Assembly: GCA_043825735.1 (NCBI GenBank)
Contig: JBDRRP010000107.1
Location: 62,001-126,000 of the forward strand
Length of the DNA: 64,000 nucleotides
Direction: 5' to 3'
DNA from: Pseudomonadota bacterium
Lineage (GTDB): Bacteria; Desulfobacterota; Desulfobacteria; Desulfobacterales; JBDRRP01
The position numbers were made by a program, and so were the translations under genes. Under the pieces are notes generated by a model, which saw only the letters and a program-made list of their open reading frames with translations, ran no database searches and was not told the origin of the DNA. The first letter of the stretch is position 1. Every line of letters begins with the position of its first letter. Positions 30,343-52,437 of the stretch are shown piece by piece.

Positions 30343-30539
30343 TAGCGGACTCGCCGTCAATTGTCAATATTCGAGTCATTGTTCTGCAGTATTGAATATG
30401 CCAATGACGGCGCAGAAGAATATCAATATTATCGTTTTGACAATCAGCGGCCGATTTTCCAGTATCCCATGCCGAAAGCCATGATTGCAGGCCTCAGCGC
30501 CGTCGGCTGTGGCGCTGTTGGTTGGAATGGCCTTTTTTA

Positions 30540-30631
30540 AGGGGCAACGGTGCTGGGCACCCCGCGGTCTTCAAAACCGTCGGCCTCGTCTAATTAACGA
30601 GGAGGAGGTTCGATTCCCCTTGCCCCTTCCA
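30540..30631 (+). tRNA. non-canonical UCA-anticodon tRNA (selC*/tRNA-ReC type; 8/4 fold, U73; predicted Cys acceptor)
   Basis: Acceptor AGGGGCAA/TTGCCCCT (8 bp) + T discriminator + encoded CCA; D arm GGTGC-TGG-GCACC; anticodon arm GCGGT-CTTCAAA-ACCGT; variable arm CCTCGT/ACGAGG; T stem GG(A bulge)GG-TTCGATT-CCCC (4 bp). Confidence 0.9.
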
Positions 30632-46023: not shown

Positions 46024-46356
46024 TTACTTTCCCTGGATCAATCTTTTCAAGAGGATATCTTCAACATTGCGCCGGGAATCTATGAGCGAGAGAACATAGA
46101 TCTTATGTTCTGTAATTCTGTATATTAGTCGCCATGGAGGGATGACCAATTCCCGGTACTGCGATATGCCCTGGTCTTGTAGCTCGGGGACTACACGGCC
46201 TCTCTCAGGAAGGGTATAAAGGCTTGCGGTTTCATTTTTTATTTTTCTAAGTATTTTTAATGCGTTGTCTGGACTTTCCAACGAAATGAATGCAATGATT
46301 TCCTTTAGATCATTTTCGGCCACTTTCGCCCAGGCAACCTGATATTTTAAAATCAT
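46024..46356 (-). CDS. type II toxin, RelE/ParE family
   Basis: AENDLKEI, PERGRVVPE, YRELVIPPWRLIYRI. Confidence 0.9.
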   Translation of the reverse strand: MILKYQVAWAKVAENDLKEIIAFISLESPDNALKILRKIKNETASLYTLPERGRVVPELQDQGISQYRELVIPPWRLIYRITEHKIYVLSLIDSRRNVEDILLKRLIQGK

Positions 46357-46634
46357 TAAAGGTTTTCTTTCAGCGAAACCTCAAGTTCAGAGAATACATC
46401 CTTTTGGAGCTTAACCTCGCCATTGCGAACATCATCTTCCCCCTGAGATATCAGTTTTAGCAAACCAATTGCATTGCGCATATTTTCATAGCTTTCAGGA
46501 TCTTGAAGAACGGCTCGGGGCTCACCGTTTTGGGTAATAATAACTGGGCGATGGGTTTCATTGATCTGGTTCAACAAAATGGCAGCTTTTGATTTTAGAT
46601 AAGTAACTGGTATTATGTCTTTTTTAATATTCAT
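46356..46634 (-). CDS. type II antitoxin, Phd/YefM family
   Basis: IIPVTYLK, PVIITQNGEPRAVL; overlaps the toxin start. Confidence 0.9.
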   Translation of the reverse strand: MNIKKDIIPVTYLKSKAAILLNQINETHRPVIITQNGEPRAVLQDPESYENMRNAIGLLKLISQGEDDVRNGEVKLQKDVFSELEVSLKENL

Positions 46635-47018: not shown

Positions 47019-47453
47019 TTACAAAAAGCGGACATCCAACCCTGCCGATGCGGCCAACCCGGACTGACGCTCATCCAGGGTGATGAACCGGCGGGCTTCT
47101 GTGGACAAGGCCACGGCTACATGAAGAATATCCAAGGAACGTGACCCGAACGCCTTGGAATGCCGAACGGACAATTCGATGGCACGGTTGAAAACGTCGG
47201 TCCATTCCACCTGTGGCCGGAAATAGATACCGGTTGTCTTGTGCTTTTCCATAAGTTCACGGACACGTGCGGCATCATCTTCGCTGATTTCATCTCTGAA
47301 ACGTTTCAGGGCGATAGCATTCAAAAACTCAAGTTCATGGAACAGTGTCAGCGGGATGGCTTCGTTGGTAGCTCTCAACCAGGCGGCGGCTTCCCGTGAA
47401 AATGTCTCTCTGAAATAGAGTTTCACGATCACGCTGGTATCGAGATAGATCAT
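47019..47453 (-). CDS. type II toxin, VapC/PIN domain
   Basis: IYLDTSVIVK, RSLDILHVA, FITLDERQ. Confidence 0.92.
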   Translation of the reverse strand: MIYLDTSVIVKLYFRETFSREAAAWLRATNEAIPLTLFHELEFLNAIALKRFRDEISEDDAARVRELMEKHKTTGIYFRPQVEWTDVFNRAIELSVRHSKAFGSRSLDILHVAVALSTEARRFITLDERQSGLAASAGLDVRFL

Positions 47454-47684
47454 TTAGAACCGATCTGCCCTGCCTTCACGGACCAGGTCGCTGACAGGAG
47501 TACCGTTTACCGCTATGGCCTCTGCATAAAAGTCAGGCCAATCGATGTCGGACTTCGGACCCAGTGCCGTCAGCTTGGCCACCGGTTTCCCGTGGCGTGT
47601 GATGGTGATTTCATCCCCGGCATGGATCGATTTCAAAATAAGGCTGAAATTTTTTTGAACATCCCCGACTGTCGCCGTTTTCAT
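47454..47684 (-). CDS. type II antitoxin, Phd family
   Basis: KTATVGDVQKNFS, ITITRHGKPVAKL. Confidence 0.9.
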   Translation of the reverse strand: MKTATVGDVQKNFSLILKSIHAGDEITITRHGKPVAKLTALGPKSDIDWPDFYAEAIAVNGTPVSDLVREGRADRF

Positions 47685-47741: not shown

Positions 47742-48275
47742 TCAGTCGGTATGCATGAGAATGCCGCGCTCCCGGGCGATGGCGGCGATCTCGGCAATGG
47801 GCTGGATCGTTCCCACCTCGTTGTTGGCGTGCATGACGCTGACGAGCACGGTTTCGGGGCGGATGGCGCGGCGAACCGCTTCGGGGTCCACCCTGCCGGC
47901 GCCGTCGACCGGGACCACCGTGGTGGCGACCCCGCGGGTCTCCAGATAGCGGCAGACCTCGAGGATCGCCGGGTGCTCCACGGCGGAGGTGATGATGTGG
48001 GCGCCGCGAGCCGCCGCCGGTTCGGCCACGCCGCAAAGGGCGTGGTTGTTGGATTCCGTACCGCCGCTGGTGAAGATCACCTGCGCCGGCGTTGCGCCGA
48101 ACATGGCTGCCACCTGCCGGCGGGCCGCGTCGACCGCCTTTTTGGGGGCGATGCCGTACCAGTGGCTGCTGGACGGATTGCCGAACTCTGTTTCCAAAAA
48201 CGGGCGCATGGCCGCAACGACCTGCGGATCGAGCGGTGTCGTGCCGTTATAGTCCAGATAAATGGGTGTCACCAT
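47742..48275 (-). pseudogene. truncated cysteine desulfurase (IscS/NifS family), N-terminal part only
   Basis: IYLDYNGTTP, FGNPSS, FTSGGTESNN, SAVEHPA, HANNEVGTIQ; stops at HTD before the PLP-binding Lys and the catalytic Cys. Confidence 0.85.
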
Positions 48276-48671: not shown

Positions 48672-49394
48672 CTAGTCAAAGGCCATGCCCGTCTTCCACA
48701 CTTCCCACACCTTGCCCACCAGATCCGGACCCGGTTTGAGGGTCTGCTTCCCAGGCTTCCAGCCGGAAGGCGTGGCCTCTTTGCCGCCGCTGGCCCTCAC
48801 CAGTTGAAATGCCTGCACCTGGCGAAAGGTCTCCATCACGTTTCGTCCCACCGGCGGGGTCAACACTTCATAGCCCTGCACGTTGCCGTCCGGGTCGATG
48901 ATGAAACGGCCTCGGGCTTCCACGCCGGCAGCCTCGTCGAAAACGCCGTACACGCGTCCCACCTTACCACCGGTATCCGAAAGCATCGGGAAGGGGACGC
49001 CGCCGTCCACCATTTTGGAGAGTTCATGATCATTCCACATCTTGTGGACGAAAACACTGTCGATGCTCATGGAAAGCACATTGACACCGAGGCCCTGAAA
49101 CGCCTTGTATTTTTCGGCAACTGCCGAAATCTCCGTGGCTCAGACGAAGGTGAAATCCCCCGGGTAGAAACAAAGCAGCACCCATTGGCCGATATATTCC
49201 GAAAGAGACAAGGAAACAAATTTGCCATTATGATACCCCGGTGCCGAAAAATCCGGTGCTTTCTGGCCGACCATGATCATGGCGCCGCCCTCCTTTTTGG
49301 GTTGAAGTTGAGGTGTGTCTGTTGCGTCTTTCGCCGGTGCTCCCACGGGCCCCCCGGTGGGTCTGGCGCATCCAACTGTCATCTCTTTCGCCAT
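48672..49394 (-). CDS. prxU: selenocysteine-containing peroxiredoxin
   Basis: FYPGDFTFV-TGA(49142-49140)-ATE at the peroxidatic position; frame continues to VGRN...WKPG; N-terminal VGCARPTGG extension. Confidence 0.93.
49112..49129 (-). promoter_or_regulatory. SECIS hairpin of prxU
   Basis: TTTCGGC-AGTT-GCCGAAA perfect 7-bp stem starting 10 nt after the UGA, G in loop. Confidence 0.8.
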
Positions 49395-50037: not shown

Positions 50038-51240
50038 CTATGCCCGAGCGATCTCCGGCATGGCCCGTTTCATCTGCCGCAGGGCCTGACGGATGCGGTG
50101 CTCGTTTTCGACCAGGGCCAGCCGCAGCCAGCCTTCACCTTCCTCGCCGAAGCCGATGCCCGGGGAAACGGCGACGTTGGCCTTTTCCATCATTTCCATG
50201 GCAAAGGCCATCGAGCCCATCTGCCGGATCGGCTCGGGCATGGGGACCCACACGAACATGCCGGCCTTGGGCTTTTCCACGGGCCAGCCCATGCGCTCGA
50301 GCCCCTCGCACATGATGTCCCGGCGCAATTGGTACTTTGCCACCTGCTCGGCGATTTCGGCCTCGCACTGCCTGAGGGCCACGATGCCGGCCACCTGGAT
50401 GGCGGAGAAGATGCCGTAGTCGTAGTAGCCCTTGATCTTGGCCAGTGCACCGACGATCCGGTTGTTGCCGACGCAATAGCCCAGCCGCCAACCGGCCATG
50501 TTGTAGGTCTTGGAAAAGCTGCCGAACTCCACGCCCACGTCCCGCGCGCCGGGGGCTTCAAGGAAACTGGGCGGCTTGTAGCCGTCAAAGGCGATCTTGG
50601 CATAGGCGAAATCGTGAATCACCATGAAACCGTATTTTTTGGCCAGTTTCACCACTTCGACAAAAAGGTCCAGGCTGCCGCAGGTGGCCGTCGGGTTGTG
50701 GGGGTAGTTGAGGATGAGCACTTTTGGCCGGGGAAAGACGTGCCGGCACATGTCAGCGATGCGTTTTAGAAAGACTTCGTCTTCGTCGATGAGCAGCCGG
50801 ATGGCGCTGCCGCCGGCGATGATGGCCGCATAGACGTGAATGGGAAAGGCCGGCGCCGGCACCAGCACCGTATCGCCGGGGCCGATCAGCGCCAGGCACA
50901 GATGGCTGATGCCTTCCTTGGAGCCGATGGTCATGATGGTCTCGGCGTCTTCATCGAGGCCAACGCCGTAATCTTTCTCATAGGACAGCGTGATCTCCCG
51001 GCGCAGGTGCTTTAACCCGTCGGCCGCCGGGTATCGGTGGATCTTGGGATCCTGAGCCATTTCGGCAAGTTTGTCGGTGACGGCGGCCGGTGCCGGGTCG
51101 ACGGGGTTTCCCATTCCCAGATCGATGACATCATCGCCCTTCCAGCGTTTTTCCATTCTCTTTTTGTTGATCATGCCAAAGAGATAGGGCGGCAGCTGGT
51201 CCATTCTTCTGGCGAAAGTGATGGGGTGCTCGTAATCCAT
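50038..51240 (-). CDS. alaC: PLP-dependent class I/II aminotransferase, AlaC-like (alanine transaminase)
   Basis: LPPYLF, MGNP, TIGSKEG, PIHVY, SKTYNMAGWR, YYDYG, LALVENEHRIRQA match AlaC/YfdZ motifs as I recall them; Ala-rich leader peptide upstream. Confidence 0.75.
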   Translation of the reverse strand: MDYEHPITFARRMDQLPPYLFGMINKKRMEKRWKGDDVIDLGMGNPVDPAPAAVTDKLAEMAQDPKIHRYPAADGLKHLRREITLSYEKDYGVGLDEDAETIMTIGSKEGISHLCLALIGPGDTVLVPAPAFPIHVYAAIIAGGSAIRLLIDEDEVFLKRIADMCRHVFPRPKVLILNYPHNPTATCGSLDLFVEVVKLAKKYGFMVIHDFAYAKIAFDGYKPPSFLEAPGARDVGVEFGSFSKTYNMAGWRLGYCVGNNRIVGALAKIKGYYDYGIFSAIQVAGIVALRQCEAEIAEQVAKYQLRRDIMCEGLERMGWPVEKPKAGMFVWVPMPEPIRQMGSMAFAMEMMEKANVAVSPGIGFGEEGEGWLRLALVENEHRIRQALRQMKRAMPEIARA

Positions 51241-51270
51241 GGCGTTTCCTCCTTGTTTGGCCCTAAATGT

Positions 51271-51303
51271 AAAACCCCGGGCTTCGGCATGGCCGACCCG
51301 GGG
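51271..51303 (-). terminator. attenuator terminator upstream of the aminotransferase
   Basis: CCCCGGG-TCGGC-CAT-GCCGA-AG-CCCGGGG-TTTT, about 30 nt before the ATG. Confidence 0.8.
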
Positions 51304-51372
51304 CTGATTTAGGCAAAGGCGCCGCGGGCCGAGTCAGCCAGCCCGTAGCGATGTGGCGCGTCCTGAAGTGGT

Positions 51373-51453
51373 TCAGTCGACGGCCGTCGCTGGGGCTGGC
51401 CCCCTGGCAGCGGCCGCCGCGGCGGTCGTTATGGGTGTCGGGTAGATCATCAT
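51373..51453 (-). CDS. Ala-rich leader peptide MMIYPTPITTAAAAAARGPAPATAVD
   Basis: GGGAG SD; 26 codons with six consecutive and nine total Ala codons; lies between promoter and terminator. Confidence 0.8.
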   Translation of the reverse strand: MMIYPTPITTAAAAAARGPAPATAVD

Positions 51454-51494
51454 CGGGTGTCCGCTCCCGTTTCGGTCGCGTGAAATATAAAATT

Positions 51495-51524
51495 ACTATA
51501 AAAAGAAATCCGCTGCGGTGTCAA
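51495..51524 (-). promoter_or_regulatory. sigma-70 promoter for leader + aminotransferase
   Basis: TTGACA-N18-TATAGT. Confidence 0.7.
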
Positions 51525-51613
51525 TGGGGGCCGGCGGCCTTGAGCGGATACCGGGCTTTGGCGTTGGCGGATCTGAAAGCCGGATCGCCAAATAGACCCA
51601 TTCTTGATGAGCA

Positions 51614-52009
51614 CTATTTTAATCTGCGGAAGCGCCAGTCGATCTTCTTCCTCTCCAGATATGCTTCGAACGCTTTGCAGGTAGTAAAGACCATTTTATA
51701 GGCGGATTCATCGGTTTCATACTCGCAAAAGGCATTTGACCCGGGATAATCGCGGCAGATACGAGGACGGTCAGCGTAATCGGTGCAACCGTTGTTTTTG
51801 GAAAGATTTTCGCAGACCGAAGTAAACGCGATATTCCAGGTGTTGTGTTGATCGACGAATACCCAGACATCGCGGTGTAAAAGATACCATCGTATGTTGT
51901 CGTAGTCTCTCTTGCATGTCGGCTTGCCGAGTTCGAGCGCCATGTAGCGGCAGCATCGCGCTTTACAGGCGACACAGTCTGCATCCCGGCGCTTCCGCGC
52001 ATTGCCCAT
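51614..52009 (-). CDS. YkgJ/UPF0153 Cys-cluster protein
   Basis: CVACKARCC, CENL, CTDYADRPRICRDYP; TTGACA-N17-TATAAA upstream. Confidence 0.85.
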   Translation of the reverse strand: MGNARKRRDADCVACKARCCRYMALELGKPTCKRDYDNIRWYLLHRDVWVFVDQHNTWNIAFTSVCENLSKNNGCTDYADRPRICRDYPGSNAFCEYETDESAYKMVFTTCKAFEAYLERKKIDWRFRRLK

Positions 52010-52437
52010 CGGAGCACTCCATCTCAAAATTAAAAATACGCTTATGCAGAAAGTTCCAGTTGGTCGCTACCCAAGGTGATTTTGAACCACGGAGCGGATT
52101 GAGTTTTTTATAGAGCAACATTGAACCCGTGTCAAATATGGGCAGGTGCTCGGGCGTCGCGCACGCCTGCACTGTAGTCGTATACATTGTCAGCATGCCG
52201 GGCGAGATAGCACATACCCCTGCTTCACATTATCACCGGTCGGTCATTCATTCCGGTTGCACTTCTTGACAGCGCAGCGAAAACTCTGGATAGTAAATGG
52301 AACCAGGCGGCCTCCGGGTGCGTATCGTGCATAGCCAATTTTCGGTATAAAACGGCCGCCCCCAAAAAACCGTCCGAAATCGAACCCGCTGCCGTCACGA
52401 CATCATCGGTGACCGAACGGCGATGCCAGGAAATTCC

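Follow-up and report, generated by a model that had tools for sequence, protein, structure and literature searches.

In the four-segment attenuators of trp, thr and leu, a stalled ribosome masks segment 1 and so frees the antiterminator. In the his attenuator, the OFF partner of the relay is the pairing C:D, which is also present in the fold of the E. coli leader made here. Alanine, for its part, affects attenuation at ilvB in E. coli. The available part of one account of the his attenuator gives B:C together with D:E as the read-through state, E:F as the terminating hairpin, and A:B as the element that sets the default when the leader is not translated (PMC4046918). In mycobacteria, the uORF of whiB7 is alanine-enriched, and stalling and antitermination there raise the alanine aminotransferase AspC under alanine starvation (PMC10274678); this uORF is long and diverse, senses many amino acids as well as antibiotics, and acts via a transcription factor, according to the available portions of two papers (PMC10274678; PMC11550727). 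At mgtL, slow translation likewise blocks an attenuating hairpin (PMC6460261, in the part available).

Here we describe a leader in a window of 64,000 nt (positions 62,001-126,000 of contig JBDRRP010000107.1, assembly GCA_043825735.1; all coordinates below are window positions unless a contig or locus is named). Our reading, to which we give a probability of about three in four, is that it is a ribosome-read attenuator that measures charged alanyl-tRNA through a five-segment relay and controls a single aminotransferase gene of the AlaC family. A first-pass annotation had proposed that alanine is the control amino acid of a leader-peptide attenuator here, and this is borne out by conservation and by covarying helices. 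Like the his leader (hisL) of Salmonella and E. coli, as described in the part of the source available, the locus has a short leader in which one amino acid is repeated in a run, its segments 1-5 correspond to B-F, and a stalled ribosome would leave B (segment 1) free. The alternation is also of the his type, with 1:2 and 3:4 against 2:3 and 4:5 in place of B:C and D:E against C:D and E:F. Because segments 1-5 map onto B-F, the relay itself is not new, and the class of mechanism is a textbook one; on sequence evidence, what we have is a conserved, alanine-specific version of it. In contrast to his, the control amino acid is alanine rather than histidine, a single gene is controlled, no match to the Rfam His_leader was found, and 48 of 67 alanine leaders have a U tract (at least 5 U in 8 nt) after 2:3, whereas the E. 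coli his sequence is without one after its middle hairpin.

Other systems share less. With trp, thr and leu the locus has in common a leader peptide with control codons, alternative hairpins, an intrinsic terminator and predicted induction on starvation, but its covarying helices require five segments and an unmasked segment 1. With whiB7/wblC, as far as the available parts of those papers go, it shares an alanine-enriched uORF attenuator linked to an alanine aminotransferase; unlike whiB7, the leader here is short, has one alanine run, and lies in cis directly before the transaminase gene. A search of the accessible full-text literature returned no dedicated alanine-run leader directly before a transaminase gene and no attenuator paper for this phylum, and alanine goes unmentioned in the accessible part of PMC1262725. 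The first-pass view that no alanine attenuator had been described must be narrowed: the available part of the whiB7 work (PMC10274678) describes one, though an indirect one.

A conserved alanine-run leader before one enzyme clade

The leader lies on the minus strand. It begins with a sigma-70-type promoter, TTGACA-N18-TATAGT (51495-51524), which matches 11 of 12 consensus positions. When both strands of 50800-52200 are searched, 2 promoter-like sites appear (0.8 expected from shuffled sequences), and this one is the better match; the transcript would start near 51488. A promoter directly 5' of the short leader ORF recurs among relatives: 66 of the 67 leaders have TTGAC at most 140 nt 5' of the uORF, compared with 8 of 63 control stretches. 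A Shine-Dalgarno-like GGGAG (51464-51468) stands 10 nt 5' of the first ATG, and such a word is found in just 37 of the 67 leaders of our alignment A2 (see below). The leader ORF itself (51373-51453), which is presumably translated, has 26 codons and reads MMIYPTPITTAAAAAARGPAPATAVD. Homologous peptides are 13-31 aa long (median 23), contain 30% alanine over the 67 leaders, and are variable outside the alanine run.

The control codons of the window copy are six alanine codons, GCC GCG GCG GCC GCT GCC (51406-51423). Over the 67 leaders all four alanine codons are used (GCC 151, GCG 107, GCA 51, GCT 22), and the last four codons form 37 distinct strings; a few leaders have interrupted runs, with 16 non-alanine codons (Thr, Ser, Gly and others) against 331 alanine codons within the runs. 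What is conserved is a run of one amino acid in which synonymous positions are free. An ATG is present in the alanine frame in 60 of 67 leaders, partly by construction, and in the other two frames in 8 and 6; an in-frame ATG with an alanine run was seen in all five leaders found by an RNA model outside alignment A2. Downstream, the aminotransferase gene has its Shine-Dalgarno AGGAGG at 51248-51253 and its ORF at 50038-51240. The promoter, the leader's ribosome-binding site, the 26-codon ORF, the mixed-codon run and the aminotransferase signals all lie where the first-pass annotation had put them. On the other side of the promoter, 5' of it, a Cys-rich ORF of 129-137 aa (51614-52027, minus strand) has no Pfam or NCBIfam match; we take it to be YkgJ-like.

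Relatives of the enzyme were gathered from 60 related genomes, 300 genomes of the order, and genome and metagenome collections. They split into a close group of about 57-88% identity and a distant group of about 43-56%; the named records of the close group come from Desulfobacterales, Desulfobulbales, Syntrophobacterales, Syntrophales and unclassified relatives, and one cultured carrier is placed in Thermodesulfobacteriota. Desulfogranum marinum DSM 2058 (L045) and Desulforhabdus sp. TSK (L047) are among the cultured carriers. We screened for uORFs with at least 4 Ala in 6 residues, setting aside 17 loci with short upstream DNA. Such uORFs were present at 76 of 115 loci with at least 60% identity (loci include duplicates), at 2 of 10 with 55-60% and at 2 of 84 with 40-55%; among the 76, the covariance model finds no RNA match at two, L049 and L050. 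As background, the same threshold is reached by 36 of 1749 ORF-free upstream regions of the source genome, which has a GC content of 57.5%, and the present locus is the only one among the 1749 with six of six Ala. In a FastTree phylogeny of 157 non-redundant proteins, the leader-bearing enzymes form one Desulfobacterota clade of 73 tips (support 1.0), in which 47 tips have the leader, 20 do not, and 6 have too little upstream sequence; outside the clade, an alanine-run leader precedes 0 of 82 fetched tips. The run is thus conserved in relatives (47 of 67 scorable orthologs), as the proposed attenuator demands, and these comparisons establish both the leader and its link to the enzyme clade.

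For the RNA alignment we took 77 leaders, which 90% dereplication reduced to 67 (alignment A2). L049, L050 and L165 were excluded by hand, while L004 (ATAT) and L010 (AASA), whose runs are interrupted, had to be put in by hand. Run on 99 loci outside the alignment, the A2 covariance model recovered a further 4 full and 2 partial leaders, each of them in the close group. A scan of 151 whole genomes of the order with it yielded 16 full-length matches (59-129 bits), every one of which precedes this aminotransferase; 15 were already known, mostly from the training set, and one (L267) is new. At the locus L117 (1382-1454), hairpins 2:3 and 4:5 are kept, and the leader ORF and segment 1 are lost; this is possibly a decaying attenuator.

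Five segments and four covarying helices

Segment 1 (51378-51400, core 51392-51400, minus strand as are all segments) lies within the leader ORF. Segment 2 (51337-51350) pairs with segment 1 in the ON state or with segment 3 in the OFF state. Segment 3 (51320-51332, TCGGCCCGCGGCG) in turn pairs with segment 2 (OFF) or with segment 4 as an antiterminator (ON), and segments 4 (51293-51304) and 5 (51274-51286) are the 5' and 3' arms of the predicted terminator. The resulting scheme, in which ON is 1:2 with 3:4 and OFF is 2:3 with 4:5, is supported by covariation over the 67 leaders. The tail after hairpin 2:3 is weak in the window (51313-51319, 4 U in 8 nt), and the U-rich tail of 4:5, TTTTACATTT (51265-51274), has 5 U in 8 nt. 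Both are weaker than the family norm; at least 5 U in 8 nt follow 4:5 in 61 of 67 leaders. The transcript is predicted to end near 51268.

Helix counts were made on alignment A2, which was itself not fitted to any structure. In helix 1:2, 81% of core cells are paired, and the whole helix, whose upper part is poorly aligned (58%), has 121 compensatory cells against 65.8 in shuffles. Helix 3:4 is 83% paired, with 66 compensatory cells against 30.6, and 2:3 and 4:5 together are 89% paired, with 131 against 37.4. None of the 500 shuffles reaches any of these three counts, and slid registers fall far below them; because the leader sequences are related, these shuffle counts are not probabilities. 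One position covaries in step through all five segments (columns 43, 119, 151, 187 and 222), and the RNAalifold consensus of the alignment is 2:3 with 4:5. Compensatory changes thus support mutually exclusive helices, one of them overlapping the leader ORF. Conserved alanine runs and covarying stems are both found upstream of orthologs.

In the window itself, the 253-nt leader is more stable than 200 of 200 shuffles (z -3.38). Helix 1:2 forms a 64-nt hairpin with a folding energy of -37.7 kcal/mol (z -7.2), the terminator hairpin 4:5 has -25.0 kcal/mol (z -4.55), and the other two helices have -18.6 and -18.4 kcal/mol, with 3:4 alone at z -1.66. The first-pass annotation had read GCCAGCCC (51393-51400), GGGCTGGC (51337-51344) and CAGCCC (51301-51306) correctly from the sequence. 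The complementarity of the first two is real, although the helix they belong to is far larger than the 8 bp assumed; segment 3 was overlooked, which left the wiring incomplete. The terminator hairpin is where it had been placed, but its U tract is only modest, and a simple terminator scan did not list it. Hairpin and U tract together have the form of an intrinsic terminator, and we predict that 4:5 acts as one.

Two further pairings were examined. Pairing of the alanine run with segment 1 is predicted in 35 of 67 leaders; in the one register tested, between the run and distal segment 1, there is no covariation. Pairing of the alanine run with segment 3, which amounts to 9.1 bp in the window and is strong in 10 of 67 leaders, was rejected: it is no better than in synonymous recodings (stronger in 29 of 67, weaker in 36). 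A covarying equivalent of his A:B, sought in one register over the 67 leaders, was not found. An Rfam search at the locus returned no family, His_leader included, at gathering score or by E-value; a snoRNA match of 11.6 bits is a chance one.

The aminotransferase and the sister leaders

The controlled gene (50038-51240, minus strand) encodes a class I PLP aminotransferase of 400 aa that belongs to the AlaC family and to a separate Desulfobacterota clade within it. Its best family is the alanine transaminase PRK08175 (NCBIfam), at 494.8 bits with the equivalog cut-off of 647 not reached, and it falls below every other NCBIfam equivalog cut-off as well. The best structure match is 2x5d, and among characterised enzymes E. 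coli AlaC comes closest, with 49.6% identity; the listed E. coli matches all fall on alaC, at a median of one place in each genome. The clade enzyme and AlaC share their family and their PLP and substrate-site motifs. The source genome encodes a second AlaC-family gene (C131:1435-3933, L252), directly 5' of a homoserine dehydrogenase gene and divergent from a purM-like ORF. This hom-linked paralog is closer to E. coli AlaC (58.5%, 637.6 bits), the clade enzyme being about 49% identical to both, and no alanine leader stands before it. Among 125 positions conserved jointly in the clade, AlaC and the hom-linked group, 108 agree and 17 differ; clade-specific changes include F132 for Y and G271 for S. 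An alanine dehydrogenase is also encoded in the genome.

The first-pass annotation had favoured an alanine transaminase over an LL-DAP aminotransferase. DapL models place the enzyme below all listed cut-offs, and a separate DapL in the genome passes TIGR03542 at 571.5 bits; because the genome has this separate DapL above a curated cut-off, the LL-DAP reading is disfavoured. That half of the claim stands, and the other half is softer, since the enzyme is assigned to AlaC by nearest family only and below the cut-off. Taken together, family and leader make it quite probable that the enzyme makes alanine.

No conserved downstream partner gene was found, the largest neighbour clusters holding 2 of 31 ORFs. 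A peroxiredoxin-like ORF at 48672-49394 (minus strand) has an in-frame TGA at the usual catalytic Cys, in the context FYPGDFTFV-U-ATE, which we take to be the peroxiredoxin catalytic-Cys motif; the ORF is probably a selenoprotein. A tRNA-Sec lies at 30539-30628. A cysteine-desulfurase-like ORF (named by eye; 47742-48275, minus strand) ends after HTD at 177 aa; a promoter and an antitoxin/PIN-type pair (about 47019-47680) come directly after it, and an insertion seems to have cut it short. At 46024-46634 (minus strand) there is another toxin-antitoxin-like pair, by eye of Phd type and RelE/ParE type.

The alanine-leader model also detected leaders of other specificity. The same layout, with two U-tailed hairpins in tandem and similar segment sequences, occurs in the phylum with Trp, Phe/Tyr and Leu leaders; the control codons and the genes differ. 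Among 16 mostly weak, partial model matches in 150 genomes of the phylum, 12 are rich in Trp, Phe or Tyr, 1 is rich in Leu and 3 are without an assignable leader, and all 14 inspected of the 29 partial matches in the order have aromatic-rich leaders. The downstream genes that we scanned encode DAHP synthase, TrpB2, ADH synthase, LeuA, TrpE, a PRK06836 aminotransferase, DAHP synthase-prephenate dehydratase and one periplasmic binding protein (L233); the rest were named by eye. The named sister attenuators are mostly 5' of enzymes for their own amino acid. Because the layout is shared with leaders that match biosynthetic genes, the polarity is fixed as biosynthetic, and the model matches suggest, at the level of sequence similarity, a common origin of the sister and alanine leaders.

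Two of the sister leaders are in the source genome. At C64:51673-51751 (plus strand, L228), a Tyr/Phe-rich leader, MEQCFSSSNYYYFSYYFQAVLPGMR, is followed by two U-tailed hairpins and then a DAHP synthase gene, and shows the five-segment layout. At C136, near 71256 (plus strand), a Trp leader, MKDRTTILPGRFWWWRGWLTPPAAGQG, is followed by two U-tailed hairpins and then a TrpE-like ORF (named by eye). L229 and L230 are weak model matches in the same genome. Across the phylum, L231-L246 and L272-L285 make up a family of attenuators with two hairpins, whose leaders are of the Trp, Phe/Tyr or Leu kind. Those of the Phe type have a hairpin that surrounds the Phe codons and uses the beginning of segment 1, much as A:B does in his. 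A scan of the source genome for tandem U-tailed hairpins gave 22 pairs and missed the present leader, whose first tail is weak.

Ribosome position and rival readings

The segment-1 core begins 7 nt past the last alanine codon in 57 of 67 leaders, a fixed spacing with a simple consequence: while it is still within the run, a ribosome does not cover segment 1. When alanine is plentiful, the ribosome would pass the alanine codons onto segment 1; segments 2 and 3 would then pair, segment 4 would be left unpaired, and the terminator 4:5 would form. In most relatives a U tract comes after 2:3, so that 2:3 may act as a second terminator. With alanine short, the ribosome would wait in the run, and the unmasked segment 1 would capture segment 2; segment 3 would take segment 4, both terminator hairpins would be prevented, and the enzyme gene would be transcribed, its product presumably making alanine from pyruvate. 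In a subgroup of leaders (L010, L044, L144, L151, L152, L156-L158, L165, L215, L216 and L267), the stop codon coincides with the end of the segment-1 core, which would place a ribosome at the stop on top of segment 1.

We modelled these states by snapshot folding, with transcripts that end where segment 4 ends and a ribosome footprint of 30 nt. The antiterminator 3:4 has a probability above 0.5 in 47 of 67 leaders with the ribosome mid-run, in 24 with it on the last alanine codon, in 4 when it is four codons further on and in 8 when it is at the stop; without a ribosome the figure is 20, and the window copy is not among them. Compared with four codons later, the mid-run state gives a higher probability in 52 leaders and a lower one in none. 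For the full-length leader at equilibrium, in contrast, the terminator is favoured in every ribosome position (48-61 of 67) and no switch is seen; thus, any switch rests on the order of folding. The method has its limits: the E. coli his leader, our positive control, is known to switch but did not do so in the snapshots, and in 14 scored leaders of other amino acids the method gave a switch in 9 and none in 5, which makes it weak evidence either way. Support for the wiring thus comes more from covariation and spacing than from folding energies. Also counting against our main reading are the 20 of 67 clade enzymes that have no leader, the weak U tails of the window copy, the sub-cut-off score of the enzyme with its 17 differing positions, and the closer AlaC relative and alanine dehydrogenase encoded elsewhere in the genome.

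The spacing and the snapshots reverse one part of the first-pass annotation, which had the stalled ribosome masking segment 1: a stalled ribosome would free it, and an elongating one would mask it. The trp-type logic behind that claim, in which segment 2, set free by the masking, pairs with the 5' arm of the terminator, predicts the same output, read-through on alanine shortage, which stands under the corrected wiring. The 6-nt complementarity of segment 2 to CAGCCC is also present in the window, yet it does not behave like a conserved helix. Its cells are paired in 71.0% of cases against 70.6% in shuffles, with 2 compensatory cells against 4.0, and 22 of 66 leaders break it at a position that covaries in the other helices. 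It folds like a shuffle (z -0.08), and its mean probability is at most 0.04 in every snapshot. With segment 1 outside a ribosome stalled mid-run and covarying helices that need five segments, we consider trp-type wiring very improbable. Still more so, to our minds, is a GC-rich run that is an RNA motif or a chance feature before plain tandem terminators. The 57.5% GC of the genome, the consensus fold of 2:3 with 4:5 and the retention of both hairpins without a leader in L117 are what such a reading would expect, but a promoter sits just 5' in 66 of 67 leaders, third codon positions vary, both alternative helices (1:2 and 3:4) covary, and pairing of the alanine codons with segment 3 does no better than synonymous recodings.

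Two other readings accept the attenuator and question what it serves. Phenicols and oxazolidinones stall ribosomes after alanine, so the leader might sense such drugs, or a general slowing of translation, rather than alanine supply. The breadth of stresses answered by whiB7-type leaders (PMC10274678, in the part available) and the interruption of a few runs would suit this; the short leader with its one tight run and fixed spacing, a regulated gene that is a transaminase and no resistance gene, and sister leaders that swap in the Trp, Phe/Tyr or Leu codons matching their genes would not, and we give it scarcely any weight, slightly less than trp-type wiring. The other reading, which we hold to be unlikely, is that alanyl-tRNA is read as modelled and the enzyme is not a glutamate-pyruvate transaminase, either because it uses another amino donor or because it serves a pathway in which alanine is a proxy for pyruvate or nitrogen. 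Scores below every equivalog cut-off, a clade of its own at about 49% to AlaC and the paralog, the changes at F132 and G271, and the other alanine routes in the genome all leave room for it. Against it stand the match to AlaC alone among E. coli genes, the agreement at 108 of 125 jointly conserved positions, the lack of any conserved downstream partner hinting at another pathway, and the named sister attenuators, which mostly precede enzymes of their own amino acid.

If the alanine attenuator, read through five segments, is correct, alanine joins the amino acids that have a dedicated in-cis leader-peptide attenuator, and the leader offers a substrate hypothesis for an aminotransferase clade that databases leave unnamed. 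The corrected wiring predicts that removal of segment 1 would turn the gene OFF, whereas the trp model predicts the opposite. The layout held in common with aromatic and leucine leaders may provide a handle on how specificity changes and on the role of the second terminator. More tentatively, and with more doubt than belief on our part, a single Desulfobacterota chassis of five segments and two terminators may have been reprogrammed by swaps of control codons (Trp, Phe/Tyr, Leu and Ala), the alanine version having a single origin, at the point where a second paralog of the AlaC family took on alanine supply as its dedicated role. If so, sulfate reducers would have, in the charging of alanyl-tRNA, a direct readout at their pyruvate node.
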